Positions 8,501 through 62,286 of a DNA stretch of 64,000 nt are shown here, one piece after another. The first letter of the stretch is position 1; every line of letters begins with the position of its first letter. Made by a program: the position numbers and the translations under genes. The notes under the pieces are model-generated. The model did no database searches. It was not told the DNA's origin and saw only the letters and a list, made by a program, of their open reading frames with translations. The stretch is from assembly GCF_045037415.1 (NCBI RefSeq), contig NZ_CP173438.1. One strand, written 5' to 3'. This DNA comes from Escherichia coli (GTDB lineage: Bacteria > Pseudomonadota > Gammaproteobacteria > Enterobacterales > Enterobacteriaceae).

Positions 8501-8632
8501 AACAGTTTTACTTTTTACGGGTGAGTAAAACTGTTGCTCGGGAATACCAAAGATTGAGCGTTGTTGTTGGTATTCATCAAATATGCGCGTCAAAAGTTCC
8601 TCAAACGGAATGGGACGCATAATATCCCCCAT
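5534..8632 (-). CDS. ygfK: Large Fe-S flavoprotein oxidoreductase (GltD-like NAD(P)/FAD domain plus ferredoxin-type 4Fe-4S motifs)
   Basis: 1032 aa; VAVIGAGPAGLAAGYFLARAG dinucleotide fold; CLECNYVCSKCVDVCP cluster motif near C-terminus. Confidence 0.92.
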   Translation of the reverse strand: MGDIMRPIPFEELLTRIFDEYQQQRSIFGIPEQQFYSPVKSKTVSVFGETCATPVGPAAGPHTQLAQNIVTSWLTGGRFIELKTVQILDRLELEKPCIDAEDECFNTEWSTEFTLLKAWDEYLKAWFALHLLEAMFQPSDSGKSFIFNMSVGYNLEGIKQPPMQQFIDNMMDASDHPKFAQYRDALNKLLQDEAFLARHGLQEKRESLQALPARIPTSMVQGVTLSTMHGCPPHEIEAICRYMLEEKGLNTFVKLNPTLLGYARVREILDVCGFGYIGLKEESFDHDLKLTQALEMLERLMALAKEKSLGFGVKLTNTLGTINNKGALPGEEMYMSGRALFPLSINVAAVLSRAFDGKLPISYSGGASQLTIRDIFDTGIRPITMATDLLKPGGYLRLSACMRELEGSDAWELNHVDVERLNRLAADALTMEYTQKHWKPEERIEVAEDLPLTDCYVAPCVTACAIKQDIPEYIRLLGEHRYADALELIYQRNALPAITGHICDHQCQYNCTRLDYDSALNIRELKKVALEKGWDEYKQRWHKPAGSGSRHPVAVIGAGPAGLAAGYFLARAGHPVTLFEREANAGGVVKNIIPQFRIPAELIQHDIDFVAAHGVKFEYGCSPDLTVEQLKNQGFHYVLIATGTDKNSGVKLAGDNQNVWKSLPFLREYNKGTALKLGKHVVVVGAGNTAMDCARAALRVPGVEKATVVYRRSLQEMPAWREEYEEALHDGVEFRFLNNPERFDADGTLTLRVMSLGEPDEKGRRRPVETNETVTLHVDSLITAIGEQQDTEALNAMGVPLDKNGWPDVDHNGETRLTDVFMIGDVQRGPSSIVAAVGTARRATDTILSRENIRSHQNDKYWNNVNPAEIYQRKGDISVTLVNSDDRDAFVAQEAARCLECNYVCSKCVDVCPNRANVSIAVPGFQNRFQTLHLDAYCNECGNCAQFCPWNGKPYKDKITVFSLSQDFDNSSNPGFLVEDCRVRVRLNNQSWVLNIDSEGQFNNVPPELNDMCRIISHVHQHHHYLLGRVEV

Positions 8633-8704
8633 AACCCTCTCCTTAGCTTATACAGATATCATTGAGTGACCGGTGTTGAGAAATCCGGTGGTTTAGGGGG
8701 ATAG

Positions 8705-8720
8705 AGCAACAATCGCACCA
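8705..8720 (-). promoter_or_regulatory. Candidate sigma-54 (-24/-12) promoter upstream of ygfK
   Basis: Minus strand reads TGGTGCGATTGTTGCT; GG and GC dinucleotides 10 bp apart, matches TGGCAC-N5-TTGCW at 14 of 16 positions; about 70 nt upstream of ygfK start. Confidence 0.4.
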
Positions 8721-8783
8721 CTCTTGCCAGGTTTGACGGGAAATATAAAAAAATGTGAGGCGGCTCGAAACTTAATGGCTTTT

Positions 8784-8799
8784 TGTGAATGAACTCACA
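8784..8799. promoter_or_regulatory. CRP-like palindrome TGTGA-N6-TCACA (CRP site or enhancer-binding-protein UAS)
   Basis: Sequence TGTGAATGAACTCACA, perfect inverted half-sites, about 70 bp upstream of the candidate -24 element. Confidence 0.4.
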
Positions 8800-8953
8800 G
8801 GTGCCAAATGAGAATTAAAATCACTCCTGAAAATTATTATTGCCAGCCCATTTATCACTTTTTCTCTTTTCTCAAAATCAGTGATTCCTTATCATTATGA
8901 TAAAGAGTGCTGGAGGGATTAAATATTTGAACGCAATCGTTTAACTACGTTTT

Positions 8954-9532
8954 CTAAATTTCAGTATACCTTTTCTTCGCTGTAATAAAGTCGTCCGGAG
9001 TATCAATATCTAAAATTATTTCTGCATTTTCTATTTCGACGGAATAATGTTCTCCCATAAGGAGTGCCTGACGCATATTGGTGACATTGGGGCGCTGGAT
9101 TGCCTGCATCAGGCATGGTTTTGACACTAAAATCGGATGGCCGGGGATGCCATTATGGAGTGGCAGTATTGCGCCATCATTTCGTAACGACCAGATTTTT
9201 CTAAAAATATCGATGGTGAGGGTTGGCATATCTCCGTGGGTGAGAAAACAATGTTCTGTTTGCACCGCGGGTACTGCGGCCTTTACTGATGTCAGTAAAC
9301 CCTGCGCATAATCTGGGTTGTGGATAATAGTGATATTGCTCTGGTTCGCATAACGTTCGTGCAGTTCATTACCACGATAGCCGGTGACTAAAATAATTCG
9401 GCTACAAAACTGCAACGCATTTTTGATACTTGTATCAAGAATTGTTCCCTGTTGCCAGGGTAACATCATTTTCCATTGCCCCATTCTTGATGATAATCCT
9501 GCGGCGGTAATTATACAGTCGATGGCTGACAT
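8954..9532 (-). CDS. mocA: Molybdenum cofactor cytidylyltransferase (MobA-like nucleotidyltransferase)
   Basis: 192 aa; N-terminal AIDCIITAAGLSSRMG nucleotidyltransferase motif. Confidence 0.88.
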   Translation of the reverse strand: MSAIDCIITAAGLSSRMGQWKMMLPWQQGTILDTSIKNALQFCSRIILVTGYRGNELHERYANQSNITIIHNPDYAQGLLTSVKAAVPAVQTEHCFLTHGDMPTLTIDIFRKIWSLRNDGAILPLHNGIPGHPILVSKPCLMQAIQRPNVTNMRQALLMGEHYSVEIENAEIILDIDTPDDFITAKKRYTEI

Positions 9533-9635
9533 AGTGATTCCATTATTTACAGGAGCTAATAACGCCTGATAATTGCGTTACTTCCTGATGGATTACGTTG
9601 AGGGTAATTTATCCCAGAGAGGTCCATAAAGACGC

Positions 9636-10406
9636 GTGAAAAGTATAATTGACCCATCGGCATTATTCATTGATTTAGGCGCGCAGAAACGTCCCACTGT
9701 GATTTCTATTGTTGGTGCTGGGGGGAAAACCAGCTTGCTTTTTTGGCTGGCAGAACTGTTCCAGGCGAGTGGCAGGCGTGTATTAATCACTACGACGACA
9801 CATATGTTTATGCCAACATCTCACTGGCCCGTGGTTTTCTGTCGTGATCCCGCCATGCTTCCTCATGCGTCTTTTATATCCCCCATTTCATTTTGTTTTC
9901 ACTGCTGGAAAGCGAACCAGGGAAAAGTGCAGGGATTTACGCCAGAAGCGATTGATGCACTGGTACAACGACCAGAGTGTGACGTAATTCTCATTGAGGC
10001 AGATGGCTCGCGTGGAATGCCGTTAAAAGCGCCTGATGAGCACGAACCTTGCATACCTAAAAGCAGTTGCTGCGTGATTGCTGTGATGGGAGGACATATT
10101 TTGGGTGCGAAAGTGAGCACAGAAAATGTCCATCGCTGGTCGCAGTTTGCTGATATTACTGGGTTAACACCTGATGCACCCTTGCAACTGAGCGATCTCG
10201 TTGCGCTGGTTCGCCACCCTCAGGGCGCGTTTAAAAACGTACCGCAAGGTTGTCGGCGAGTCTGGTTCATTAACCGTTTTTCTCAATGTGAGAATGCGAT
10301 TGCGCAAAGCGAGCTCCTTCAACCGCTGCAACAACACAACGTAGAGGCAATCTGGCTGGGCGATATACAAGAACATCCTGCAATCGCGCGCAGATTTGTG
10401 AATTAG
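9636..10406 (+). CDS. yqeC: P-loop accessory protein of selenium-dependent molybdenum hydroxylase systems
   Basis: 256 aa, GTG start; Walker A IVGAGGKTS. Confidence 0.85.
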   Translation: MKSIIDPSALFIDLGAQKRPTVISIVGAGGKTSLLFWLAELFQASGRRVLITTTTHMFMPTSHWPVVFCRDPAMLPHASFISPISFCFHCWKANQGKVQGFTPEAIDALVQRPECDVILIEADGSRGMPLKAPDEHEPCIPKSSCCVIAVMGGHILGAKVSTENVHRWSQFADITGLTPDAPLQLSDLVALVRHPQGAFKNVPQGCRRVWFINRFSQCENAIAQSELLQPLQQHNVEAIWLGDIQEHPAIARRFVN

Positions 10407-10453
10407 CGGCCCGGGTATTCCGGGTTACTGAAAGGATATCCATTGAGGTTGGT

Positions 10454-12079
10454 ATGAATATTTTCACAGAGGCTGCAAAACTCGAAGAGCAAAATTGTCC
10501 GTTTGCGATGGCGCAAATTGTTGATAGCCGAGGCTCAACCCCCCGCCATTCTGCACAAATGTTAGTGCGCGCCGATGGTTCTATCGTCGGTACAATTGGT
10601 GGCGGAATGGTTGAGCGGAAGGTGATTGAAGAGTCGCTTCAGGCATTGCAGGAACGTAAGCCGCGATTATTCCATGGACGTATGGCTCGTAACGGTGCGG
10701 ATGCTGTCGGGTCAGATTGTGGAGGTGCAATGTCAGTATTTATCAGCGTCCATGGTATGCGTCCACGTCTGGTGTTGATTGGTGCGGGGCATGTCAACCG
10801 GGCGATAGCCCAGAGTGCGGCGCTATTAGGATTTGATATCGCCGTTGCCGATATTTATCGCGAAAGCCTCAATCCTGAACTATTCCCACCATCAACCACG
10901 CTTCTCCATGCTGAGTCGTTTGGTGCGGCAGTGGAAGCACTGGATATTCGCCCTGATAATTTTGTCCTGATTGCCACGAATAATCAGGATCGTGAAGCCC
11001 TCGACAAACTCATTGAACAACCCATTGCATGGCTGGGGTTGCTGGCAAGTCGCCGCAAGGTTCAGCTTTTCCTACACCAATTGCGTGAGAAAGGCGTGGC
11101 TGAAGAACATATTGCCCGTTTACATGCGCCCGTTGGTTACAACATAGGTGCGGAAACGCCGCAGGAGATCGCCATCAGCGTGCTGGCAGAAATATTACAG
11201 GTGAAAAATAACGCGCCGGGTGGGCTGATGATGAAGCCTTCTCATCCTTCCGGACACCAGCTGGTGGTGATTCGCGGTGCGGGGGATATCGCCAGTGGTG
11301 TAGCGCTACGTCTGTATCATGCGGGTTTTAAAGTGATCATGTTGGAAGTGGAAAAACCGACAGTGATTCGTTGTACCGTGGCGTTTGCCCAGGCCGTGTT
11401 CGATGGCGAAATGACGGTCGAAGGCGTCACCGCCCGCCTGGCAACCAGCTCTGCGGAAGCGATGAAACTTACCGAACGCGGATTTATCCCTGTGATGGTA
11501 GATCCCACCTGTTCATTGCTTGATGAACTGAAACCGCTTTGCGTGGTGGACGCTATTCTGGCGAAACAGAATTTGGGAACGCGGGCAGATATGGCACCAG
11601 TAACAATCGCGCTTGGGCCGGGCTTTACTGCAGGGAAGGATTGTCATGCGGTAATTGAAACAAATCGCGGGCACTGGCTCGGTCAGGTGATTTACTCAGG
11701 TTGTGCGCAGGAGAATACCGGTGTTCCCGGCAATATTATGGGGCATACCACCCGACGAGTGATCCGCGCTCCTGCTGCAGGCATTATGCGATCCAACGTG
11801 AAATTAGGCGATCTGGTGAAAGAGGGCGATGTCATTGCCTGGATTGGTGAGCATGAAATTAAAGCACCGTTGACGGGGATGGTGCGTGGCTTGTTGAACG
11901 ACGGACTGGCCGTGGTCGGTGGTTTTAAAATTGGTGATATCGATCCTCGTGGTGAAACGGCTGATTTCACCAGCGTTTCTGATAAAGCCCGGGCGATTGG
12001 CGGCGGCGTACTTGAGGCGTTAATGATGTTGATGCATCAGGGCGTTAAAGCGACAAAAGAAGTGCTGGAAGTGGCTTAA
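10454..12079 (+). CDS. yqeB: XdhC/CoxI-family molybdenum hydroxylase maturation protein
   Basis: 541 aa; Rossmann-like LVLIGAGHV segment; follows yqeC by 47 nt. Confidence 0.88.
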   Translation: MNIFTEAAKLEEQNCPFAMAQIVDSRGSTPRHSAQMLVRADGSIVGTIGGGMVERKVIEESLQALQERKPRLFHGRMARNGADAVGSDCGGAMSVFISVHGMRPRLVLIGAGHVNRAIAQSAALLGFDIAVADIYRESLNPELFPPSTTLLHAESFGAAVEALDIRPDNFVLIATNNQDREALDKLIEQPIAWLGLLASRRKVQLFLHQLREKGVAEEHIARLHAPVGYNIGAETPQEIAISVLAEILQVKNNAPGGLMMKPSHPSGHQLVVIRGAGDIASGVALRLYHAGFKVIMLEVEKPTVIRCTVAFAQAVFDGEMTVEGVTARLATSSAEAMKLTERGFIPVMVDPTCSLLDELKPLCVVDAILAKQNLGTRADMAPVTIALGPGFTAGKDCHAVIETNRGHWLGQVIYSGCAQENTGVPGNIMGHTTRRVIRAPAAGIMRSNVKLGDLVKEGDVIAWIGEHEIKAPLTGMVRGLLNDGLAVVGGFKIGDIDPRGETADFTSVSDKARAIGGGVLEALMMLMHQGVKATKEVLEVA

Positions 12080-25452: not shown

Positions 25453-25526
25453 GCGGGCGTAGTTCAATGGTAGAACGAGAGCTTCCCAAGCTCTATACGA
25501 GGGTTCGATTCCCTTCGCCCGCTCCA
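25453..25526 (+). tRNA. glyU: tRNA-Gly (anticodon CCC)
   Basis: GCGGGCGTAGTTCAATGGTAGAACGAGAGCTTCCCAAGCTCTATACGAGGGTTCGATTCCCTTCGCCCGCTCCA; cloverleaf with 7-bp acceptor stem, CCC anticodon, encoded CCA. Confidence 0.95.
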
Positions 25527-36533: not shown

Positions 36534-36615
36534 CCCAGAGGTATTGATAGGTGAAGTCAACTTCGGGTTGAGCACATGAATTACACCAGCCTGCGCAGAT
36601 GCGCAGGTTTTTTTT
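36534..36615 (+). ncRNA. omrB: OmrB small regulatory RNA (Hfq-dependent, OmpR-controlled)
   Basis: CCCAGAGGTATTGATAGGTGAAGTCAACTTCGGG...CCTGCGCAGATGCGCAGG plus T9 terminator. Confidence 0.9.
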
Positions 36616-36730: not shown

Positions 36731-36818
36731 CCCAGAGGTATTGATTGGTGAGATTATTCGGTACGCTCTTCGTACCCTGTCTCTTGCACCAACCTGCGCG
36801 GATGCGCAGGTTTTTTTT
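36731..36818 (+). ncRNA. omrA: OmrA small regulatory RNA (paralogue of OmrB)
   Basis: CCCAGAGGTATTGATTGGTGAGATTATTCGG...CCTGCGCGGATGCGCAGG plus T8 terminator; same 5' and 3' ends as OmrB. Confidence 0.9.
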
Positions 36819-48743: not shown

Positions 48744-49214
48744 ATGAAAAAACAACGTGGTTATACGCTGATTGAAACGCTGGTCGCGATGCTGATTCTG
48801 GTCATGCTAAGCGCAAGTGGGCTCTATGGCTGGCAATACTGGCAGCAGTCGCAACGGCTTTGGCAAACCGCCAGCCAGGCGCGGGACTATTTGCTCTATT
48901 TACGTGAAGATGCCAACTGGCATAACCGCGACCACAGTATCAGTCTTATCAGGGAGGGGACGTTATGGTGCCTTGTGAGTTCCGTTGCTGGGGCGAATAC
49001 CTGTCATGGCAGTTCACCATTGGTCTTTGTGCCGCGCTGGCCCGAAGTCGAAATGAGCGACCTGACACCTTCGCTTGCTTTCTTTGGCCTGCGCAATACC
49101 GCATGGGCCGGGCATATTCGCTTCAAAAACTCAACGGGCGAGTGGTGGCTAGTGGTTTCGCCGTGGGGAAGACTCCGGCTTTGTCAGCAAGGAGAAACAG
49201 AAGGATGCCTGTAA
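48744..49214 (+). CDS. ppdA: Prepilin-peptidase-dependent pseudopilin A
   Basis: 156 aa; prepilin N-terminus [22 protein letters not shown]. Confidence 0.9.
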
Positions 49215-49768
49215 AAGAGCAAGGTTTTTCTCTGCTGGAAGTGTTGATTGCTATGGCGATCAGTAGCGTATTGTTGCTGGGGGCTGCACGCTTTCTGCCT
49301 GCGTTACAGCGTGAAAGTTTAACGAACACCCGTAAGCTGGCGCTGGAAGATGAAATCTGGCTGCGGGTATTTACCGTCGCGAAGCATCTCCAGAGGGCGG
49401 GTTATTGCCATGGCAGCTGTACGGGCGAAGGGCTGGAAATTGTCGGACAGGGTGACTGTGTCATTGTGCAGTGGGATGCGAACAGTAATGGTATCTGGGA
49501 TCGCGAACCGGTAAAAGAGTCCGACCAGATTGGATTTCGTCTGAAGGAGCATGTGCTGGAAACGCTACGCGGTGCGACATCCTGTGAAGGTAAGGGCTGG
49601 GATAAAGTCACTAATCCGGATGCCATCATTATCGACACTTTTCAGGTCGTACGTCAGGATGTCAGCGGCTTCTCGCCGGTGTTGACGGTTAATATGCACG
49701 CTGCCAGCAAGGCTGATCCGCAAACCGTGGTGGATGCCAGCTATAGCGTGACAGGATCCAACCTGTGA
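49205..49768 (+). CDS. ppdB: Prepilin-peptidase-dependent pseudopilin B
   Basis: Start at [21 protein letters not shown] (187 aa); the longer 267-aa track ORF overlaps ppdA. Confidence 0.88.
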
Positions 49769-50172
49769 ACCGCGAAAAGGGTGTTTCGTCACTGGCTCTG
49801 GTCCTGATGCTGCTGATTTTGGGTAGCTTGCTATTGCAAGGAATGAGTCAGCAGGATCGCAGTTTTGCTTCTCGCGTGAGCATGGAAAGTCAGTCATTGC
49901 GCCGCCAGGCCATCGTTCAGTCGGCGCTGGAGTGGGGAAAAATGCACTCCTGGCAGACGCTGCCCGCAGTTCAGTGCTTACTGTATGCTGCCACCGGTGC
50001 CCGGGTTTGTCTGCGTTTACTGGCAGATAATGAAGCCTTATTGATTGCTGGTTATGAAGGCGTTTCGTTGTGGCGAACAGGCGAAGTCATCGATGGAAAC
50101 ATTGTTTTTTCGCCACGCGGCTGGAGCGATTTTTGTCCGCTGAAAGAGAGGGCGTTATGTCAGCTTCCCTGA
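49765..50172 (+). CDS. ygdB: Pseudopilin-like protein with N-terminal hydrophobic segment
   Basis: 135 aa, GTG start; 4-nt overlap with ppdB. Confidence 0.85.
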
Positions 50173-50480
50173 GGAATCAACAAGGCTTTAGTCTGCCGGA
50201 GGTAATGTTGGCGATGGTGTTGATGGTGATGATTGTCACTGCGTTATCGGGTTTCCAGCGAACATTAATGAACAGTCTTGCCAGCAGAAACCAGTACCAA
50301 CAGCTCTGGCGGCATGGCTGGCAGCAAACGCAACTGCGCGCGATTTCGCCACCTGCTAACTGGCAGGTCAACCGAATGCAGACATCGCAGGCGGGATGTG
50401 TCAGCATCAGCGTTACGCTAGTTTCACCCGGGGGCAGAGAAGGCGAGATGACCCGCCTGCATTGCCCGAATCGTCAGTAG
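50157..50480 (+). CDS. ppdC: Prepilin-peptidase-dependent pseudopilin C
   Basis: Start at [24 protein letters not shown] (107 aa); overlaps ygdB by 16 nt. Confidence 0.88.
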
Positions 50481-50492
50481 TCAGGAGCCGCT

Positions 50493-53400
50493 ATGTTAAG
50501 GGTCTACCATTCCAATCGTCTGGACGTGCTGGAAGCGTTGATGGAGTTTATTGTCGAACGCGAACGGCTGGACGATCCTTTCGAACCAGAGATGATTCTG
50601 GTGCAAAGTACCGGTATGGCACAGTGGCTGCAAATGACCCTGTCGCAAAAGTTTGGTATTGCGGCAAACATTGATTTTCCGCTGCCAGCGAGCTTTATCT
50701 GGGATATGTTCGTCCGGGTGTTACCGGAGATCCCCAAAGAGAGCGCCTTTAACAAACAGAGCATGAGCTGGAAACTGATGACACTGCTGCCGCAACTGTT
50801 GGAGCGCGAAGACTTTACCCTGTTGCGGCATTATCTGACTGACGATAGTGACAAGCGAAAACTGTTCCAGCTTTCTTCAAAAGCGGCGGACCTGTTTGAC
50901 CAGTATCTGGTCTATCGTCCGGACTGGCTGGCACAGTGGGAAACAGGACATCTGGTAGAAGGGTTGGGAGAAGCACAGGCCTGGCAAGCGCCGTTGTGGA
51001 AGGCGTTGGTGGAATATACCGACGAACTTGGGCAACCGCGCTGGCACCGCGCCAATCTCTATCAGCGCTTTATCGAAACGCTGGAGTCCGCGACGACCTG
51101 CCCGCCGGGGTTACCTTCGCGCGTCTTTATATGCGGTATTTCCGCGTTACCGCCTGTTTATCTCCAGGCGCTACAGGCGCTGGGTAAACATATTGAAATC
51201 CATCTCCTGTTTACCAACCCCTGCCGTTATTACTGGGGCGACATTAAAGATCCCGCTTATCTGGCGAAACTACTGACTCGCCAGCGCCGACACAGTTTTG
51301 AAGATCGCGAATTACCGCTATTTCGCGACAGCGAAAATGCCGGGCAGCTCTTTAACAGCGATGGTGAACAGGATGTCGGCAACCCGCTGCTGGCTTCATG
51401 GGGCAAGCTTGGGCGCGACTACATTTATCTCCTTTCTGACCTGGAGAGCAGCCAGGAGCTGGACGCTTTTGTCGATGTGACGCCAGATAACCTGCTGCAT
51501 AATATTCAGTCTGACATTCTGGAACTGGAAAACCGCGCCGTTGCTGGTGTGAACATCGAAGAGTTTTCCCGTAGCGATAACAAACGCCCGCTTGATCCAC
51601 TGGATAGCAGTATCACCTTCCACGTTTGCCATAGCCCGCAGCGTGAAGTTGAAGTTTTACACGATCGCCTGCTGGCGATGCTGGAGGAAGACCCGACACT
51701 TACTCCGCGCGACATCATCGTGATGGTGGCTGATATCGACAGCTACAGTCCGTTTATTCAGGCTGTGTTTGGTAGCGCACCTGCGGATCGTTACCTGCCT
51801 TACGCCATTTCCGACCGTCGGGCGCGGCAGTCGCATCCTGTACTTGAAGCGTTTATCAGCCTGTTATCGTTGCCAGACAGCCGCTTTGTGTCGGAAGACG
51901 TGCTGGCATTACTGGATGTGCCGGTGCTGGCGGCGCGGTTTGACATCACCGAAGAAGGGCTGCGTTATTTACGCCAGTGGGTCAACGAGTCCGGCATTCG
52001 TTGGGGGATAGATGACGACAACGTTCGCGAGCTGGAACTTCCCGCTACCGGTCAACACACCTGGCGGTTTGGCCTGACGCGCATGTTGCTGGGCTACGCG
52101 ATGGAGAGCGCGCAGGGCGAGTGGCAATCGGTTCTACCTTATGATGAATCGAGCGGCTTAATTGCAGAACTGGTGGGGCATCTGGCTTCACTGCTAATGC
52201 AGCTAAATATCTGGCGTCGCGGGCTGGCGCAGGAGCGTCCGCTGGAAGAGTGGTTGCCGGTTTGTCGCGATATGCTCAACGCCTTCTTCCTGCCGGATGC
52301 GGAAACCGAAGCGGCGATGACGCTGATCGAACAACAATGGCAGGCGATTATCGCCGAAGGTTTAGGTGCGCAGTATGGCGACGCGGTGCCGCTGTCACTA
52401 TTGCGTGATGAACTGGCACAGCGCCTGGATCAAGAACGTATCAGCCAGCGTTTTCTCGCCGGACCGGTTAACATTTGTACTCTGATGCCAATGCGTTCAA
52501 TTCCGTTCAAAGTGGTTTGCCTGCTGGGAATGAACGACGGCGTTTATCCACGTCAGCTTGCGCCATTGGGCTTTGATCTGATGAGCCAGAAACCGAAGCG
52601 TGGCGACCGTAGCCGTCGCGATGACGACCGCTATCTGTTCCTGGAAGCGTTAATTTCCGCGCAGCAAAAACTCTATATCAGCTATATCGGGCGTTCCATT
52701 CAGGATAACAGTGAACGTTTCCCGTCGGTACTGGTGCAGGAACTGATCGACTACATCGGGCAAAGCCATTATCTACCGGGCGATGAAGCGCTCAACTGTG
52801 ATGAAAGCGAGGCAAGGGTAAAAGCGCATCTTACTTGCCTCCATACCCGAATGCCGTTTGATCCACAAAACTACCAGCCAGGCGAACGACAAAGTTATGC
52901 TCGTGAATGGCTACCTGCGGCCAGCCAGGCTGGTAAAGCACATTCTGAATTTGTTCAGCCGCTGCCATTTACCTTACCGGAAACCGTGCCGCTGGAAACG
53001 CTACAACGATTCTGGGCACATCCGGTGCGGGCATTTTTCCAGATGCGTTTGCAGGTGAACTTCCGTACCGAAGACAGCGAAATCCCCGACACCGAGCCAT
53101 TTATTCTGGAAGGACTTAGCCGTTATCAAATCAATCAGCAGTTATTGAATGCACTGGTTGAGCAGGATGATGCCGAACGCTTGTTCCGTCGCTTCCGGGC
53201 GGCAGGGGATTTACCGTATGGCGCTTTTGGTGAAATTTTCTGGGAAACGCAGTGTCAGGAGATGCAGCAGCTTGCCGACAGAGTCATTGCCTGTCGCCAG
53301 CCGGGGCAGAGTATGGAGATTGATCTCGCCTGCAACGGTGTGCAAATAACGGGCTGGTTGCCGCAGGTGCAGCCGGATGGCCTGTTGCGCTGGCGTCCCT

Positions 53401-53861
53401 CTTTATTAAGTGTGGCGCAGGGAATGCAACTTTGGCTGGAACACCTTGTCTACTGTGCCAGCGGTGGTAATGGTGAAAGTCGCCTTTTTCTACGCAAAGA
53501 CGGCGAGTGGCGTTTTCCGCCGCTTGCAGCCGAACAGGCTTTGCATTACCTCTCACAACTGATTGAGGGGTATCGTGAAGGAATGTCCGCGCCATTGCTG
53601 GTGTTACCTGAAAGTGGCGGCGCGTGGCTAAAAACCTGTTATGACGCGCAAAACGATGCCATGCTGGATGACGATTCCACGTTGCAAAAAGCCCGTACGA
53701 AATTCCTTCAGGCTTACGAAGGCAACATGATGGTGCGTGGCGAAGGTGATGATATCTGGTATCAACGGCTCTGGCGGCAATTAACACCAGAGACAATGGA
53801 GGCTATCGTTGAACAGTCGCAACGTTTCCTGTTACCGCTGTTTCGCTTTAATCAGTCATGA
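50493..53861 (+). CDS. recC: Exodeoxyribonuclease V gamma subunit
   Basis: 1122 aa; N-terminus MLRVYHSNRLDVLEALM. Confidence 0.97.
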   Translation: MLRVYHSNRLDVLEALMEFIVERERLDDPFEPEMILVQSTGMAQWLQMTLSQKFGIAANIDFPLPASFIWDMFVRVLPEIPKESAFNKQSMSWKLMTLLPQLLEREDFTLLRHYLTDDSDKRKLFQLSSKAADLFDQYLVYRPDWLAQWETGHLVEGLGEAQAWQAPLWKALVEYTDELGQPRWHRANLYQRFIETLESATTCPPGLPSRVFICGISALPPVYLQALQALGKHIEIHLLFTNPCRYYWGDIKDPAYLAKLLTRQRRHSFEDRELPLFRDSENAGQLFNSDGEQDVGNPLLASWGKLGRDYIYLLSDLESSQELDAFVDVTPDNLLHNIQSDILELENRAVAGVNIEEFSRSDNKRPLDPLDSSITFHVCHSPQREVEVLHDRLLAMLEEDPTLTPRDIIVMVADIDSYSPFIQAVFGSAPADRYLPYAISDRRARQSHPVLEAFISLLSLPDSRFVSEDVLALLDVPVLAARFDITEEGLRYLRQWVNESGIRWGIDDDNVRELELPATGQHTWRFGLTRMLLGYAMESAQGEWQSVLPYDESSGLIAELVGHLASLLMQLNIWRRGLAQERPLEEWLPVCRDMLNAFFLPDAETEAAMTLIEQQWQAIIAEGLGAQYGDAVPLSLLRDELAQRLDQERISQRFLAGPVNICTLMPMRSIPFKVVCLLGMNDGVYPRQLAPLGFDLMSQKPKRGDRSRRDDDRYLFLEALISAQQKLYISYIGRSIQDNSERFPSVLVQELIDYIGQSHYLPGDEALNCDESEARVKAHLTCLHTRMPFDPQNYQPGERQSYAREWLPAASQAGKAHSEFVQPLPFTLPETVPLETLQRFWAHPVRAFFQMRLQVNFRTEDSEIPDTEPFILEGLSRYQINQQLLNALVEQDDAERLFRRFRAAGDLPYGAFGEIFWETQCQEMQQLADRVIACRQPGQSMEIDLACNGVQITGWLPQVQPDGLLRWRPSLLSVAQGMQLWLEHLVYCASGGNGESRLFLRKDGEWRFPPLAAEQALHYLSQLIEGYREGMSAPLLVLPESGGAWLKTCYDAQNDAMLDDDSTLQKARTKFLQAYEGNMMVRGEGDDIWYQRLWRQLTPETMEAIVEQSQRFLLPLFRFNQS

Positions 53862-54036
53862 GTGTTGTATAAAAATTGCGCAATCTATCCGCTTACTTTA
53901 TGATGCGCACCAGTCACGGACTGATGGTTATATAGACATAGGCTGACTCGTTCAGCACAAGATTAAATTCTGGCAGATGATTTGCGTTAACGTGTTGAAT
54001 CTGGCCAGAAAATAAAGTTGATTATGAGGTCCGTGA

Positions 54037-56925
54037 ATGCCCCGCAGCATCTGGTTCAAAGCATTATTGTTGTTTGTTGCCCTCTGGGCACCCTTAAGTC
54101 AGGCAGAAACGGGATGGCAGCCGATTCAGGAAACCATCCGTAAAAGTGATAAAGATAACCGCCAGTATCAGGCTATACGTCTGGATAACGGTATGGTGGT
54201 CTTACTGGTTTCTGATCCGCAGGCAGTTAAATCGCTCTCGGCGCTGGTGGTGCCCGTTGGGTCGCTGGAAGATCCTGAGGCGTACCAGGGGCTGGCACAT
54301 TACCTTGAACATATGAGTCTGATGGGGTCGAAAAAGTATCCGCAGGCTGACAGTCTGGCCGAATATCTCAAAATGCACGGCGGCAGTCACAATGCCAGCA
54401 CGGCACCGTATCGCACGGCTTTCTATCTGGAAGTTGAGAACGATGCCTTACCCGGTGCGGTAGACCGCCTGGCCGATGCTATTGCAGAACCCTTGCTCGA
54501 CAAGAAATACGCCGAACGTGAGCGTAATGCAGTGAATGCCGAATTAACCATGGCGCGTACGCGTGACGGGATGCGCATGGCACAGGTCAGCGCAGAAACC
54601 ATTAACCCGGCACACCCCGGTTCAAAGTTTTCTGGTGGTAACCTCGAAACTTTAAGCGACAAACCAGGTAATCCGGTACAGCAGGCGCTGAAAGATTTCC
54701 ACGAGAAGTACTATTCCGCCAATCTGATGAAGGCGGTTATTTACAGCAATAAACCGTTGCCGGAGTTGGCGAAAATGGCGGCGGACACCTTTGGTCGCGT
54801 GCCGAACAAAGAGAGCAAAAAACCGGAAATCACCGTGCCGGTAGTCACCGACGCGCAAAAGGGCATTATCATTCATTACGTCCCGGCGCTGCCGCGTAAA
54901 GTTCTGCGCGTTGAGTTTCGCATCGATAACAATTCAGCGAAGTTCCGTAGTAAAACGGATGAATTGATTACCTATCTGATTGGTAATCGCAGCCCTGGTA
55001 CACTTTCTGACTGGCTGCAAAAGCAGGGATTAGTTGAGGGCATTAGCGCCAATTCCGATCCTATCGTCAACGGCAACAGCGGCGTATTAGCGATCTCTGC
55101 GTCTTTAACCGATAAAGGTCTGGCGAATCGCGATCAGGTTGTGGCGGCCATTTTTAGCTACCTCAATCTGTTACGTGAAAAAGGGATCGATAAACAATAC
55201 TTCGATGAACTGGCGAATGTGCTGGATATCGACTTCCGTTATCCGTCAATCACCCGTGATATGGATTACGTCGAATGGCTGGCAGATACCATGATTCGCG
55301 TTCCTGTTGAGCATACACTGGATGCAGTCAATATTGCCGATCGGTACGACGCTAAAGCGGTAAAAGAACGTCTGGCGATGATGACGCCACAGAATGCGCG
55401 TATCTGGTATATCAGCCCGAAAGAGCCGCACAACAAAACGGCTTACTTTGTCGATGCGCCGTATCAGGTCGATAAAATTAGCGCACAAACTTTCGCTGAC
55501 TGGCAGAAAAAAGCCGCCAATATTGCGCTCTCCTTACCGGAGCTTAACCCCTATATTCCTGACGATTTCTCGCTGATTAAGTCAGAGAAGAAATACGACC
55601 ATCCAGAGTTGATTGTTGATGAGTCGAATCTGCGCGTGGTGTATGCGCCAAGCCGTTATTTTGCCAGCGAGCCCAAAGCTGATGTCAGCCTGATTTTGCG
55701 TAATCCGAAAGCCATGGACAGCGCCCGCAATCAGGTGATGTTTGCACTCAATGATTATCTCGCAGGGCTGGCGCTTGATCAGTTAAGCAACCAGGCGTCG
55801 GTTGGTGGCATAAGTTTTTCCACCAATGCTAACAACGGCCTTATGGTTAATGCTAATGGTTACACCCAGCGTCTGCCGCAGCTGTTCCAGGCTCTGCTGG
55901 AGGGCTACTTTAGCTATACCGCTACGGAAGATCAGCTTGAGCAGGCGAAGTCCTGGTATAACCAGATGATGGATTCCGCAGAAAAGGGCAAAGCGTTCGA
56001 GCAGGCGATTATGCCCGCGCAGATGCTCTCGCAAGTGCCGTACTTCTCGCGAGATGAACGGCGCAAAATTTTGCCCTCCATTACGTTGAAAGAGGTGCTG
56101 GCCTATCGCGACGCCTTAAAATCAGGGGCTAGACCAGAGTTTATGGTTATCGGCAACATGACTGAAGCCCAGGCAATAACGCTGGCACGCCATGTGCAAA
56201 AACAGTTGGGCGCTGATGGTTCAGAGTGGTGTCGTAACAAAGATGTCGTGGTCGATAAAAAACAATCCGTCATCTTTGAAAAAGCCGGTAACAGCACCGA
56301 CTCCGCACTGGCAGCGGTATTTGTACCGACTGGCTACGATGAATACACCAGCTCAGCGTATAGTTCTCTGTTGGGGCAGATCGTACAGCCGTGGTTCTAC
56401 AATCAGTTGCGTACCGAAGAACAGTTGGGCTATGCCGTGTTTGCGTTTCCAATGAGCGTGGGGCGTCAGTGGGGCATGGGCTTCCTTTTGCAAAGCAATG
56501 ATAAACAGCCTTCATTCTTGTGGGAGCGTTACAAGGCGTTTTTCCCAACCGCAGAGGCAAAATTGCGGGCGATGAAGCCAGAAGAGTTTGCGCAAATCCA
56601 GCAGGCGGTAATTACCCAGATGCTGCAGGCACCGCAAACGCTCGGCGAAGAAGCATCGAAGTTAAGTAAAGATTTCGATCGCGGCAATATGCGCTTCGAT
56701 TCGCGTGATAAAATCGTGGCCCAGATAAAACTGCTGACGCCGCAAAAAATTGCTGATTTCTTCCATCAGGCGGTGGTCGAGCCGCAAGGTATGGCTATTC
56801 TGTCGCAGATTTCCGGCAGCCAGAATGGGAAAGCCGAATATGTGCATCCTGAAGGCTGGAAAGTGTGGGAGAACGTCAGCGCGTTGCAGCAAACAATGCC
56901 CCTGATGAGTGAAAAGAATGAGTGA
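54037..56925 (+). CDS. ptrA: Periplasmic protease III (pitrilysin, M16 family)
   Basis: 962 aa; signal peptide; inverted zinc motif HYLEHM. Confidence 0.97.
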   Translation: MPRSIWFKALLLFVALWAPLSQAETGWQPIQETIRKSDKDNRQYQAIRLDNGMVVLLVSDPQAVKSLSALVVPVGSLEDPEAYQGLAHYLEHMSLMGSKKYPQADSLAEYLKMHGGSHNASTAPYRTAFYLEVENDALPGAVDRLADAIAEPLLDKKYAERERNAVNAELTMARTRDGMRMAQVSAETINPAHPGSKFSGGNLETLSDKPGNPVQQALKDFHEKYYSANLMKAVIYSNKPLPELAKMAADTFGRVPNKESKKPEITVPVVTDAQKGIIIHYVPALPRKVLRVEFRIDNNSAKFRSKTDELITYLIGNRSPGTLSDWLQKQGLVEGISANSDPIVNGNSGVLAISASLTDKGLANRDQVVAAIFSYLNLLREKGIDKQYFDELANVLDIDFRYPSITRDMDYVEWLADTMIRVPVEHTLDAVNIADRYDAKAVKERLAMMTPQNARIWYISPKEPHNKTAYFVDAPYQVDKISAQTFADWQKKAANIALSLPELNPYIPDDFSLIKSEKKYDHPELIVDESNLRVVYAPSRYFASEPKADVSLILRNPKAMDSARNQVMFALNDYLAGLALDQLSNQASVGGISFSTNANNGLMVNANGYTQRLPQLFQALLEGYFSYTATEDQLEQAKSWYNQMMDSAEKGKAFEQAIMPAQMLSQVPYFSRDERRKILPSITLKEVLAYRDALKSGARPEFMVIGNMTEAQAITLARHVQKQLGADGSEWCRNKDVVVDKKQSVIFEKAGNSTDSALAAVFVPTGYDEYTSSAYSSLLGQIVQPWFYNQLRTEEQLGYAVFAFPMSVGRQWGMGFLLQSNDKQPSFLWERYKAFFPTAEAKLRAMKPEEFAQIQQAVITQMLQAPQTLGEEASKLSKDFDRGNMRFDSRDKIVAQIKLLTPQKIADFFHQAVVEPQGMAILSQISGSQNGKAEYVHPEGWKVWENVSALQQTMPLMSEKNE

Positions 56926-59900
56926 TGTCGCCGAGACACTAGATCCTTTGCGCTTGCCCTTACAGGGCGAGCGCCTGATTGAAGCCTCTGCCGGCACAGG
57001 CAAAACCTTTACGATTGCGGCGCTCTATTTGCGCCTGTTACTTGGACTAGGCGGTTCGGCCGCCTTTCCCCGCCCGCTGACCGTTGAAGAACTGCTGGTG
57101 GTGACCTTTACCGAGGCTGCCACGGCAGAATTGCGTGGTCGTATCCGTAGCAATATCCACGAGTTGCGCATCGCCTGTCTGCGTGAAACCACCGACAATC
57201 CACTGTACAAACGCCTGCTGGAAGAGATCGACGATAAAGCGCAAGCCGCGCAGTGGTTGTTGTTAGCCGAGCGGCAGATGGATGAAGCGGCAGTCTTTAC
57301 TATCCACGGCTTTTGCCAGCGCATGCTCAACCTGAATGCCTTTGAATCCGGCATGCTGTTTGAGCAGCAGCTGATTGAAGATGAGTCTCTGCTACGCTAC
57401 CAGGCCTGCGCCGATTTCTGGCGTCGCCACTGCTACCCGCTGCCGCGTGAAATTGCCCAGGTCGTCTTTGAAACCTGGAAAGGGCCGCAGGCGTTGCTGC
57501 GCGATATTAATCGTTATCTGCAAGGCGAAGCGCCAGTTATCAAAGCACCGCCCCCCGATGATGAAACGCTGGCTTCCCGCCACGCGCAAATTGTGGCGCG
57601 TATTGATGCCGTAAAACAGCAGTGGCGCGACGCAGTGGGTGAACTGGATGCGCTGATCGAATCTTCTGGTATTGATCGACGCAAGTTTAACCGTAGCAAT
57701 CAGGCTAAATGGATCGAGAAGATCAGCGCCTGGGCAGAAGAAGAGACCAATAGCTATCAGTTGCCGGAGTCGCTGGAAAAATTCTCTCAGCGTTTCTTAG
57801 AAGATCGCACGAAAGCCGGGGGGGAAACCCCGCGACATCCACTGTTTGAGGCGATCGATCAACTGCTTGCAGAACCATTGTCGATCCGCGATCTGGTGAT
57901 CACCCGCGCATTGGCTGAGATCCGCGAAACAGTAGCGCGTGAAAAACGCCGCCGTGGCGAATTGGGTTTTGATGACATGTTAAGTCGGCTCGATTCCGCG
58001 CTGCGTAGTGAAAGCGGCGAGGTATTGGCAGCGGCGATCCGTACGCGATTCCCGGTGGCAATGATCGATGAATTTCAGGATACCGACCCCCAGCAGTACC
58101 GAATTTTTCGCCGTATCTGGCACCATCAGCCGGAAACCGCATTGTTGCTGATTGGCGACCCGAAACAGGCCATATATGCATTCCGGGGTGCGGATATCTT
58201 CACTTATATGAAGGCGCGTAGCGAAGTTCATGCTCACTACACCTTAGATACCAACTGGCGTTCCGCACCGGGAATGGTGAACAGCGTTAACAAACTTTTC
58301 AGCCAGACTGATGACGCGTTCATGTTTCGTGAAATACCGTTTATTCCTGTGAAATCTGCCGGGAAAAATCAGGCGTTACGCTTTGTGTTTAAAGGTGAAA
58401 TGCAGCCTGCGATGAAAATGTGGCTGATGGAAGGCGAAAGCTGCGGCGTTGGCGACTATCAAAGTACCATGGCGCAGGTATGTGCTGCGCAAATCCGCGA
58501 CTGGCTACAAGCCGGACAGCGGGGCGAAGCGTTGCTGATGAACGGCGACGATGCGCGTCCGGTGCGTGCTTCGGACATCAGTGTGCTGGTGCGCAGCCGC
58601 CAGGAGGCCGCTCAGGTGCGCGATGCCTTAACGCTGCTGGAAATCCCTTCCGTTTACCTTTCGAACCGCGACAGTGTTTTTGAAACTCTGGAAGCACAGG
58701 AGATGCTTTGGCTGTTGCAGGCGGTGATGACGCCCGAACGTGAGAACACCCTGCGCAGTGCGCTGGCAACGTCAATGATGGGGCTGAATGCGCTGGATAT
58801 TGAAACGCTGAATAATGACGAACATGCGTGGGATGCGGTAGTCGAAGAGTTCGATGGTTATCGGCAAATCTGGCGCAAACGTGGCGTTATGCCGATGCTG
58901 CGGGCGCTGATGTCGGCGCGTAACATTGCAGAAAACTTGCTGGCAACGGCAGGCGGTGAGCGGCGTCTTACCGATATCTTGCATATCAGCGAACTGCTAC
59001 AAGAAGCCGGAACGCAGCTGGAAAGTGAACATGCGCTGGTACGCTGGTTATCGCAACATATCCTCGAGCCAGACAGTAATGCCTCCAGCCAACAAATGCG
59101 CCTCGAAAGTGATAAACATCTGGTGCAGATTGTCACGATACACAAATCAAAAGGGCTGGAATATCCGCTGGTCTGGTTGCCATTTATTACCAATTTCCGC
59201 GTCCAGGATCAGGCGTTTTATCACGATCGCCACTCGTTTGAGGCCGTTCTGGATCTTAATGCTGCGCCAGAAAGCGTCGACCTCGCGGAGGCCGAACGTC
59301 TGGCGGAAGATCTGCGTTTACTTTACGTGGCGCTGACGCGTTCGGTTTGGCATTGCAGTCTCGGCGTTGCACCGCTGGTGCGCCGTCGTGGCGATAAAAA
59401 AGGTGATACCGACGTCCACCAAAGTGCGCTCGGGCGTTTGCTGCAAAAAGGAGAACCGCAAGATGTGGCAGGGCTTCGTACCTGCATTGAAGCGTTGTGC
59501 GATGATGATATTGCCTGGCAAACGGCACAAATTGGTGATAACCAGCCCTGGCAGGTTAATGATGCATTAACTGCAGAACTGAATGCGAGGACGCTACAAC
59601 GATTGCCCGGCGATAACTGGCGTGTCACCAGCTACTCCGGTTTGCAGCAGCGTGGTCACGGTATCGCTCAGGATCTGATGCCACGGTTGGATGTTGATGC
59701 CGCAGGCGTGGTCAGCGTCGTTGAAGTACCGACGTTAACACCGCATCAGTTCCCGCGCGGTGCGTCACCGGGGACATTCTTGCACAGTTTGTTTGAAGAC
59801 CTCGATTTTACCCAGCCGGTTGACCCGAACTGGGTACAGGAAAAACTGGAGCTCGGTGGCTTTGAACCGCAGTGGGAACCGGTGTTGACTGAGTGGATCA

Positions 59901-60460
59901 CGGCTGTCCTCCTGGCACCTCTCAATGAAACGGGTATTAGCCTGAGTCAGCTTTCCGATCGCGATAAACAGGTGGAGATGGAGTTTTACCTGCCAATTAG
60001 CGAACCGCTCATCGCCAGCCAGCTTGATGCACTAATTCGCCAGTTTGACCCGCTATCTGCTGGCTGCCCGCCGCTGGAGTTCATGCAGGTACGTGGCATG
60101 TTAAAAGGCTTTATCGATCTGGTGTTCCGCCACGAAGGGCGTTATTACCTGCTCGACTATAAATCCAACTGGTTGGGTGAAGACAGTTCGGCTTACACCC
60201 AACAGGCTATGGCAGCGGCAATGCAGGCACACCGCTATGATCTGCAATATCAGCTTTATACCCTGGCGCTGCACCGTTATCTGCGCCATCGTATTGCTGA
60301 TTACGACTATGAGCGCCACTTTGGCGGCGTTATTTATCTGTTCCTGCGTGGCGTTGATAAAGAACATCCGCAACAAGGGATCTACGCGACCCGACCCAAC
60401 GCCGGGTTGATTGACCTGATGGATGAGATGTTTGCCGGTATGACCCTGGAGGAGGCGTAA
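56918..60460 (+). CDS. recB: Exodeoxyribonuclease V beta subunit (helicase-nuclease)
   Basis: Start at [30 protein letters not shown] (1180 aa); Walker A; overlaps ptrA end by 8 nt. Confidence 0.97.
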
Positions 60461-62286
60461 TGAAATTGCAAAAGCAATTACTGGAAGCTGTGGAGCACAA
60501 ACAGCTACGCCCGCTGGACGTGCAGTTTGCCCTGACCGTGGCGGGAGATGAACATCCTGCCGTCACCCTCGCGGCGGCACTATTAAGTCATGATGCCGGA
60601 GAGGGACACGTTTGTTTGCCGCTTTCACGACTGGAAAATAACGAGGCGTCGCATCCGCTGTTGGCGACCTGTGTCAGTGAAATCGGTGAGCTACAAAATT
60701 GGGAAGAATGCTTGCTGGCTTCACAAGCGGTCAGCCGGGGAGATGAACCAACGCCGATGATCCTCTGTGGCGATCGTCTTTATTTGAATCGCATGTGGTG
60801 TAACGAGCGCACAGTGGCACGTTTTTTCAACGAAGTGAATCATGCCATTGAGGTTGATGAAGCTCTACTGGCGCAAACCCTGGACAAACTTTTTCCAGTA
60901 AGCGATGAAATTAACTGGCAAAAAGTTGCGGCGGCAGTGGCGCTGACGCGGCGGATTTCGGTGATTTCCGGCGGTCCTGGCACCGGTAAAACGACCACCG
61001 TAGCGAAGTTGCTGGCAGCCTTAATTCAAATGGCCGACGGAGAACGCTGCCGTATCCGTCTGGCTGCACCAACGGGTAAAGCTGCCGCGCGCTTAACCGA
61101 ATCTCTCGGCAAGGCTTTGCGACAGTTACCGCTGACCGCTGAACAAAAGAAACGCATTCCGGAAGATGCCAGCACTTTGCACCGATTGCTGGGCGCGCAG
61201 CCGGGTAGCCAGCGTTTACGTCATCATGCCGGTAACCCGCTGCATCTTGATGTGCTGGTGGTAGATGAAGCGTCAATGATCGATCTTCCTATGATGTCGA
61301 GACTGATCGACGCCTTGCCCGATCATGCGCGAGTGATCTTTCTCGGCGATCGTGATCAACTGGCCTCGGTTGAGGCTGGGGCTGTGCTGGGCGATATCTG
61401 CGCTTATGCCAACGCGGGCTTTACCGCCGAGCGTGCCGGGCAGTTGAGCCGCCTGACGGGAAGCCACGTTCCAGCAGGAACTGGCACAGAAGCGGCATCT
61501 TTGCGCGACAGCCTCTGCCTGCTGCAAAAAAGCTATCGTTTCGGCAGCGATTCTGGCATTGGTCAGTTAGCTGCGGCGATTAACCGAGGTGATAAAACGG
61601 CAGTGAAAACCGTTTTTCAGCAGGATTTTACTGATATCGAAAAACGGCTTTTACAGAGTGGCGAAGATTATATTGCGATGCTTGAGGAAGTTCTTGCGGG
61701 TTACGGACGTTATCTGGATCTGCTGCAAGCGCGTGCCGAGCCGGATTTAATCATTCAGGCGTTCAATGAGTACCAGCTTTTGTGCGCCCTGCGGGAAGGA
61801 CCGTTTGGCGTGGCTGGATTGAATGAGCGAATTGAGCAATTTATGCAACAGAAGCGCAAAATTCATCGTCATCCGCACTCTCGTTGGTACGAAGGTCGAC
61901 CAGTGATGATTGCCCGTAATGACAGCGCGCTTGGGTTGTTTAATGGCGATATTGGTATTGCGCTGGATCGCGGGCAGGGGACGCGCGTCTGGTTTGCGAT
62001 GCCGGACGGCAATATTAAGTCTGTGCAACCGAGTCGCCTGCCAGAGCACGAAACGACGTGGGCGATGACGGTACATAAATCGCAGGGATCGGAGTTCGAC
62101 CATGCGGCGTTGATTTTACCGAGTCAACGCACGCCGGTAGTAACGCGAGAGCTGGTTTACACCGCGGTGACCCGCGCGCGTCGCCGTCTGTCGCTGTATG
62201 CCGATGAGCGCATTTTAAGTGCGGCAATTGCCACGCGCACCGAGCGGCGCAGTGGTCTGGCGGCGTTGTTTAGTTCACGGGGATAA
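60460..62286 (+). CDS. recD: Exodeoxyribonuclease V alpha subunit (helicase)
   Basis: 608 aa; Walker [10 protein letters not shown]; start overlaps recB stop (TAATG). Confidence 0.97.

Follow-up and report, generated by a model that had tools for sequence, protein, structure and literature searches.

The recC-ptrA-recB-recD locus

The window, by which we mean the whole 64,000-nucleotide stretch of Escherichia coli DNA analysed here, carries the canonical chromosomal four-gene locus of the species, recC followed by ptrA-recB-recD. The DNA matches E. coli chromosomes that carry the same RefSeq annotation at 100% identity, and its lineage is non-K-12, with 100% identity to SK1144 and others. The locus is organized as follows.

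recC, 50493-53861, plus strand: 1122 aa, exodeoxyribonuclease V gamma subunit (open reading frame; NCBIfam NF008289, 2128 bits, cut-off 1470; RefSeq)
recC-ptrA intergenic region, 53862-54036, plus strand: 175 nt (sequence), taken to hold the ptrA-recB-recD promoter and 5'UTR
ptrA (pitrilysin, protease III), 54037-56925, plus strand: 962 aa from an ATG start, M16 zinc metalloprotease
recB, 56918-60460, plus strand: 1180 aa, exodeoxyribonuclease V beta subunit (NCBIfam NF008128, 2332 bits, cut-off 1697; RefSeq)
recD, 60460-62286, plus strand: 608 aa, exodeoxyribonuclease V alpha subunit (NCBIfam NF008127, 1135 bits, cut-off 671; RefSeq)

The RecBCD (exonuclease V) set is intact, with recC, recB and recD present as full-length NCBIfam equivalogs scoring far above their cut-offs. 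A preliminary description had nested ptrA between recC and recB; open reading frames, equivalog matches and RefSeq bear out these identities and this order. Sequencing of the locus is reportedly due to Finch et al., 1986. Genes, order, strand and spacing are the same as in the thyA-argA region of E. coli K-12, recC, ptr(ptrA)-recB-recD, as are the 8-nt ptrA/recB and 1-nt recB/recD overlaps, with no difference of substance (PMC2586629, PMC12342828). Upstream of ptrA, recC forms a separate operon with its own transcription unit (PMC12342828). Minus-strand antisense open reading frames across or near the junction (56662-57003, 57025-57354, 56270-56560 and 53284-53796) lack a Pfam match and were treated as spurious.

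PtrA scores 1854 bits with the NCBIfam pitrilysin equivalog NF011681 (cut-off 765), its residues 1-959 aligning to positions 1-959 of the 961-position profile. All four domains of the M16 architecture are matched in Pfam (Peptidase_M16, M16_C, M16_M and PqqF-like_C_4), and the inverted zinc motif HxxEH is present in the N-terminal M16 domain as HYLEH, residues 88-92 (54298-54312). The identical E. coli protein is known as a zinc-dependent endopeptidase acting on small peptides. The PDB entry 1Q2L, 'Protease III', matches residues 24-962, the mature protein; because that structure begins at residue 24, we read residues 1-23 (54037-54105), MPRSIWFKALLLFVALWAPLSQA ahead of ETGW, as the signal peptide. 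PtrA is a Sec-exported periplasmic M16 zinc protease without a role in RecBCD.

Overlaps at the ptrA/recB and recB/recD junctions

The ptrA stop codon TGA lies at 56923-56925 and the recB ATG at 56918-56920. Three features define the two junctions.

ptrA/recB overlap, 56918-56925, plus strand: ATGAGTGA, 8 nt, -8 class NTGNNTGA (sequence and RefSeq)
recB ribosome-binding region, 56907-56917, plus strand: purine-rich GAGTGAAAAGA within the last ptrA codons, weak Shine-Dalgarno (SD) match (GAGUG)
recB/recD junction, 60448-60462, plus strand: strong SD GGAGGAGG (60448-60455), then TAATG (60458-60462)

The 8-nt extension of ptrA into recB that had been described is exact to the base (ATGAGTGA, 56918-56925), and so is the TAATG overlap at the recB-recD junction, where the recB stop TAA (60458-60460) and the recD ATG (60460-62) have one base in common; the latter 1-nt overlap is described in PMC2586629. 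A 70-nt segment around the ptrA/recB junction matches that of the K-12 strain C3026 exactly; among 5425 complete E. coli genomes, 5214 carry it with 99% identity or more. The ptrA/recB overlap is real and conserved, yet it is statistically unremarkable, since overlaps occur frequently. Between lgt and recD in the window, five of the nine co-directional junctions annotated by RefSeq overlap (ppdA|ppdB -10, ppdB|ygdB -4, ygdB|ppdC -16, ptrA|recB -8 and recB|recD -1), and -8 is the third most frequent overlap class in E. coli and one of three that are enriched (PMC12548453, PMC10666635).

The ptrA/recB motif corresponds exactly to the -8 class NTGNNTGA of termination-reinitiation pairs (Huber et al. 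2019 and 2023; J Bacteriol review 2025). Coupled pairs are known in the classes -4 (ATGA), -1 (TAATG/TGATG) and -8; there the downstream ribosome-binding site lies within the upstream open reading frame, as it does at ptrA/recB. The recB/recD pair belongs to the -1 class and, with TAATG preceded by a strong SD, is a classical junction co-producing two subunits of one complex.

Ribosome-binding sites and local RNA structure

Calculated SD duplex energies were -2.5 kcal/mol for recB, -6.3 for ptrA (SD GAGG), -6.6 for recC and -12.1 for recD. Opening the recB initiation region (-18 to +12) would cost 9.0 kcal/mol, within the 8.4-11.0 kcal/mol calculated for recC, ptrA and recD. Sequestration of the recB ribosome-binding site, which the RNA-unfolding model of coupling presupposes, is not indicated by these values, and that model is unneeded because the recB initiation region is no more structured than those of its neighbors. 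Codons 11-19 of recB (56950-56974) can form a strong hairpin, through which the 120-nt junction folds better than its shuffles (z = -2.6). We considered this hairpin as a conserved element and rejected it: RNAalifold predicts nothing at the site, only 69% of cells pair across 16 species, and covariation does not exceed that seen with slid partners.

Transcription and Hfq

The genes ptrA, recB and recD are reported to form one polycistronic operon, with the recB ribosome-binding site inside ptrA (PMC12342828, eLife 2025). Two features were placed upstream of ptrA.

Candidate sigma-70 promoter, TTGCGC 53876-53881, 17-nt spacer, TATGAT 53899-53904, plus strand: inferred
Published Hfq-binding site in the ptrA 5'UTR, 53987-54022, plus strand: fuzzy match to the sequence in PMC12342828; 2 of its 36 positions differ from K-12

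TTGCGC-TATGAT matches 8 of 12 consensus positions, below the scan threshold, and may be the promoter of ptrA-recB-recD; its location agrees with the 76 nt reported between the promoter and the Hfq site downstream of it (PMC12342828). Overproduction of sigmaE induces ptrA 10.7-fold, recB 4.5-fold (with a bracketed second value of 9.5) and recD 3.1-fold (PMC2731931). A sigmaE promoter (GGAACTT-N15-17-TCAAA/TCTGA) was not found in 53600-54040 when up to 2+1 mismatches were allowed, a stringency so loose that about 1.2 matches per kb occur across the window.

Deletion of the Hfq site before ptrA raised the number of RecB proteins per mRNA from 7.9 to 16.3, and it also halved recB mRNA; a second Hfq binding peak lies inside recB (PMC12342828). 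The site is situated about 2.9 kb upstream of recB, and the effect of its deletion on RecB per mRNA is most simply explained if translation of ptrA feeds translation of recB. The halved recB mRNA and the second Hfq peak leave this result open to other readings.

Probable coupling of recB translation to ptrA

Taken together, a model for the expression of recB emerges. The three genes would be co-transcribed, as the literature holds, from the promoter in the recC-ptrA spacer; ribosomes translating ptrA would traverse the recB ribosome-binding region and stop 8 nt within recB, and some of those terminating would reinitiate at the recB start with the low efficiency of the -8 class. The remaining recB initiation would be weak and independent. 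RecB output would then follow ptrA translation, amounting to a small fraction of it, coupling would help to hold RecB very scarce, and regulators acting at the ptrA 5'UTR, such as Hfq, could reach RecB through the coupling.

We judge it probable that ribosomes finishing ptrA account for part of recB initiation, by termination-reinitiation at the -8 overlap, with weak independent initiation supplying the rest. Two lines of evidence favor this combination: i) the SD match of recB is weak, which makes low-efficiency coupling plausible, and ii) the local RNA structure is not unusual. In general, spacings from -8 to +10 nt are taken as the range of coupling by termination-reinitiation, which works less efficiently at -8 than at shorter overlaps; all 14 native overlapping pairs put to the test proved strictly coupled (PMC10666635, PMC12548453). 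Coupling at ptrA/recB itself is proposed in PMC12342828, a 2025 eLife paper; a literature search found no direct test of ptrA-recB coupling and no ribosome-profiling statements on ptrA and recB.

The preliminary description had taken the overlap to imply translational coupling. This is reasonable, since coupling has been proposed in PMC12342828 and fits both the weak recB SD and the Hfq-site deletion, but the overlap alone does not imply it, and relatives keep the gene order, not the overlap. That description had also presented the coupling of functionally unrelated proteins as an oddity, which is overstated. The products form no complex in 571 of the 820 E. coli pairs (69.6%) spaced at -8 to +10 nt (PMC10666635), so PtrA and RecB, not being complex partners, represent the majority situation among closely spaced pairs of the species.

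Junction comparison across Enterobacterales

The order recC-ptrA-recB-recD is constant in all 31 Enterobacterales loci compared, and in 27 of them ptrA and recB meet at a tight junction of -8 or -4, which counts in favor of coupling. The -8 junction occurs at 9 loci, only in Escherichia, Citrobacter and Salmonella; 18 loci, including those of Klebsiella, Enterobacter, Yersinia and Serratia, have -4 (ATGA) instead. A few relatives have short spacers or a repeat insertion, the four non-overlapping junctions being RIT714 at +2, Cedecea and Buttiauxella at +11 each, and Dryocola at +130. In this comparison, -4 appears to be ancestral and -8 derived in Escherichia, Salmonella and Citrobacter, where an indel in the ptrA tail shifted its phase relative to recB; the overlap appears to have been lost occasionally.

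This variation in overlap length, with +2, +11 and +130 among the spacings, speaks against coupling, and the spacers show that recB is evidently translatable without a stop/start overlap. In most Enterobacteriaceae loci, an element resembling AGUGA(G/A)A lies 8-13 nt before the recB ATG, whether the stretch is coding or not; retention of this purine-rich, ribosome-binding-site-like element even where it is non-coding argues for some independent recB initiation.

These observations bear on the strongest alternative, in which genome compaction and drift of the stop codon produced the overlap as a neutral side effect, recB initiates independently at its weak ribosome-binding site, ptrA translation has no specific effect on RecB, and the low RecB level is due solely to a weak SD and scarce mRNA. 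The junction type drifts among -8, -4, +2, +11 and +130 around a fixed recB start, as this alternative would have it, and the AGUGAGA element persists regardless of coding. The Dryocola spacer accommodates a 120-nt dispersed repeat insertion, the PtrA C-terminal tail is variable among the 31 loci (in the window it ends ...SEKNE), and the recB initiation region equals its neighbors in accessibility. Against neutral drift stand the stop/start overlap retained in 27 of 31 loci, the very weak recB SD, the altered RecB translational efficiency upon perturbation of the ptrA 5'UTR (PMC12342828) and the coupled behavior of tested native overlapping pairs (PMC10666635). We regard this explanation as somewhat unlikely.

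A promoter within the ptrA coding region could instead drive most recB-recD expression, leaving ptrA and recB largely on different mRNAs and the overlap of little consequence. In its favor, disruption of ptrA in Serratia hardly altered recB and recD mRNA (1.67-fold and 1.58-fold, values that the authors report as not significantly different). On the other side, a scan of 3.7 kb for an internal sigma-70 promoter serving recB gave two weak sites where 3.5 were expected from shuffles, neither of them near recB, and no convincing sigma-70-like site in the 3' half of ptrA. The single polycistronic operon and the halving of recB mRNA by a partial ptrA 5'UTR deletion (PMC12342828), together with co-induction of ptrA, recB and recD by sigmaE (PMC2731931), likewise make such a promoter improbable.

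Initiation of recB at the in-frame upstream GTG 56909, the first start codon of its open frame and the one used by the mechanical open reading frame list, would lengthen the overlap to 17 nt and the protein to 1183 aa; we reject it as extremely improbable, since ATG 56918 aligns with the recB start in 31 of 31 related loci and fits both RefSeq and the NCBIfam profile (protein residues 1-1179 on profile 2-1179), Enterobacter-type junctions carry an in-frame TAA 9 nt before the recB ATG, and no SD-like match precedes the GTG (+1.2 kcal/mol).

Implications for RecBCD expression

The gene layout and the idea of coupling are already published, such overlaps are routine, and the junction is no new object: publications have described the architecture ever since the sequence was determined, and the 2025 paper (PMC12342828) puts forward the coupling hypothesis explicitly. 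What the comparison adds is that the overlap class shifts across Enterobacterales while the recB start and the purine-rich, ribosome-binding-site-like element stay fixed.

Because a cell must contain no more than a few RecBCD molecules, the setting of recB translation is a live question, and the ptrA/recB junction is the obvious place for testing its control. A bolder and doubtful extension of the coupling model would treat the -8 junction of the Escherichia-Salmonella-Citrobacter clade as a derived state in which coupling is deliberately inefficient; this junction together with the weak recB SD would fix RecB at a small constant fraction of PtrA and make ptrA a 'leader ORF' for RecBCD dosage. 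If this were true, Hfq and envelope-stress sigmaE, acting only at the ptrA 5' end, would set RecBCD dosage, and the ptrA insertion would have been retained partly for the control of recB expression.

Gene identity and layout of the recC–ptrA–recB–recD locus

The genes recC, ptrA, recB and recD follow one another on the same strand, with argA convergent downstream (RefSeq annotation); their coordinates are as follows.

50493-53861, same strand: recC
54037-56925, same strand: ptrA
56918-60460, same strand: recB
60460-62286, same strand: recD

Each of the four matches its NCBIfam equivalog model over the whole length and clears the curated cut-off by a wide margin, and the identity and architecture of the locus are certain; it is the textbook locus, with an already known overlap. 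Exonuclease V is made up of three subunits, RecB, RecC and RecD. In PtrA, a typical signal peptide, MPRSIWFKALLLFVALWAPLSQA, precedes ETGW; residues 88-92 form the inverted zinc motif HYLEH, and all four M16 domains are present. Residues 24-962, the mature periplasmic protein, are matched by a solved structure, 1Q2L, which bears the name 'Protease III'. The window is chromosomal E. coli DNA. In a genome search, positions 53700-57200 were 100% identical to several complete E. coli genomes, and at least 80% of this stretch was present in 5424 of 5426; one of the 5426 had no match to the ptrA region, and one assembly placed the region on a replicon labelled plasmid. Elsewhere in the window, ygfK, xdhD, xdhA, ygeV and yqeB occupy the first 25 kb, upstream of a single tRNA gene (25453-25523; Rfam RF00005, 71.6 bits), and the known omrA/omrB pair shows up as two tandem hits of the OmrA-B sRNA family (36534-36615 and 36731-36818; 86.1 and 96.6 bits).

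Reading of the stop and start codons bore out the preliminary description exactly, both in coordinates and in its placing of ptrA between recC and recB with an 8-nt overlap and a TAATG junction beyond: the ptrA stop TGA (56923-56925) and the recB ATG (56918-56920) delimit the overlap ATGAGTGA, and the recB stop and recD start form TAATG at 60458-60462. A mechanical ORF list began recB at GTG 56909, which we rejected; all relatives begin recB at the position of the ATG, an in-frame TAA lies 9 nt upstream of it in Enterobacter-type sequences, and the GTG is without a Shine-Dalgarno match. A recB start other than ATG 56918 is thus extremely improbable. Antisense ORFs across or near the ptrA/recB junction had no Pfam match.

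Transcription of the locus

[quoted passage not shown] A recent study (PMC12342828, eLife 2025) distinguishes two operons, recC alone and ptrA-recB-recD, describes ptrA as having no part in repair, and considers that ptrA probably interrupted an ancestral recC-recB-recD order. It also puts the recB ribosome-binding site within ptrA and proposes translational coupling. Both the overlap and its interpretation as possible translational coupling are therefore already in print; a literature search found no direct test of ptrA-recB coupling. For co-transcription of ptrA-recB-recD we rely on the literature; sigmaE overproduction raises ptrA 10.7-fold, recB 4.5-fold and recD 3.1-fold (PMC2731931).

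The main Hfq site was mapped to the ptrA 5'UTR, and its deletion halved recB mRNA but doubled the number of RecB proteins made per mRNA (7.9 before, 16.3 after; PMC12342828). In this strain the 36-nt site lies at 53987-54022 and departs from K-12 at two positions (GGACAG to GGCCAG, AATTAAG to AATAAAG). A candidate promoter at 53876-53904 (TTGCGC, 17-nt spacer, TATGAT) scores under the consensus scan threshold, and its position would agree with the '76 nt' statement of PMC12342828.

The ptrA/recB junction across Enterobacterales

One genome per species was scanned with PtrA, and contigs were added for Salmonella, Klebsiella, Yersinia, Serratia and more distant homologues. The order recC-ptrA-recB-recD was found in 31/31 loci with both ptrA and recB.

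Spacing at the ptrA/recB junction (negative, overlap in nt; positive, spacer in nt)
-8: 9 loci; Escherichia coli, E. albertii, E. whittamii, Escherichia sp., Citrobacter amalonaticus, C. koseri, Salmonella
-4 (ATGA): 18 loci; Enterobacter, Lelliottia, Leclercia, Huaxiibacter, Shimwellia, Entomohabitans, Klebsiella, Yersinia, Serratia, one further Enterobacterales
+2: 1 locus; Enterobacteriaceae bacterium RIT714
+11: 2 loci; Cedecea, Buttiauxella
+130: 1 locus; Dryocola

Since the recB start is homologous in position throughout the 31 loci while the PtrA C-terminal tail varies, the -8 state looks like a derived phase change from an indel in the ptrA tail; the -4 junction is probably ancestral, being common to the other families. 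At the recB/recD junction, most loci have a spacing of -4, and Escherichia and a few others have -1. In a Yersinia aldovae Logan assembly (L037:7889-11481), the ORF calls split recB in two (7889-9439 and 9439-11481), owing to a frameshift or to misassembly.

More distantly, two Logan metagenome contigs that are Pasteurellaceae-like by gene content (L035:1758-7949 and L036:4762-10949) encode a PtrA homologue of 38% identity immediately downstream of recC (the two overlap by 4 nt in L036), and no recB comes next. Pseudopilin-like genes precede recC, as they do in E. coli (ppdAB-ygdB-ppdC-recC), and the recC-ptrA adjacency may therefore predate Enterobacterales. PtrA homologues at 40-47% identity lie in unrelated contexts.

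Initiation of recB translation

The recB Shine-Dalgarno (SD) match is weak (GAGUG, -2.5 kcal/mol), against duplex energies of -6.3 for ptrA, -6.6 for recC and -12.1 kcal/mol for recD (GGAGGAGG, 60448-60455). The opening energy of the recB initiation region, 9.0 versus 8.4-11.0 kcal/mol for the others, reveals no extra structure, so coupling of the RNA-unfolding type is not indicated; termination-reinitiation would be the likelier route for any coupling. Published work ranks the -8 class below -4 and -1 in efficiency (PMC12548453, PMC10666635), which fits the very low RecB abundance. An 11-bp hairpin at 56950-56974 (GCGCUUGCCCU-UAC-AGGGCGAGCGC, recB codons 11-19) is stable in E. coli; we rejected it as a conserved element, as covariation support was absent across 16 species and conservation was no more than coding sequence accounts for.

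We moderately favor a model in which inefficient termination-reinitiation couples some recB translation to that of ptrA, and weak initiation independent of ptrA adds to it. Its main rival, in which recB initiates wholly on its own and the overlap is neutral compaction, is less probable but a serious contender. Bearing on independent initiation, a purine-rich AGUGA(G/A)A element precedes the recB ATG by 8-13 nt in most Enterobacteriaceae and is kept both as PtrA codons and in non-coding spacers, which suggests that it is recB's own ribosome-binding region. In Dryocola boscaweniae (L016:10890-11012), a spacer of ~130 nt splits ptrA from recB; it belongs to a dispersed intergenic repeat, which resembles ERIC/IRU and of which E. 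coli genomes have a median of 4 detectable copies each, at ~74% identity. The original 'aaagtgagagataATG' recB leader is retained downstream of the insert and recB is presumably still expressed, so the overlap would not be indispensable. A dominant internal promoter is improbable.

Prevalence of overlapping junctions

Upstream of recC, ppdA-ppdB-ygdB-ppdC (48744-50480) form a chain of overlaps of -10, -4 and -16 nt, separated from recC by a 12-nt gap, which marks overlaps as the local norm; from lgt to recD, 5/9 co-directional junctions overlap (-10, -4, -16, -8, -1; RefSeq annotation). A 2025 review (PMC12548453) and a 2023 genome-wide study (PMC10666635) give -4 as the commonest spacing, with -1 and -8 (NTGNNTGA) also enriched. 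In the latter, 707 of 2987 co-directional E. coli pairs fall within -8 to +6, and 571/820 pairs (69.6%) within -8 to +10 are not partners of a complex, making tight junctions of functionally unrelated genes the majority case. The ptrA/recB overlap is real and kept within E. coli, and it belongs to a common class and is not remarkable.
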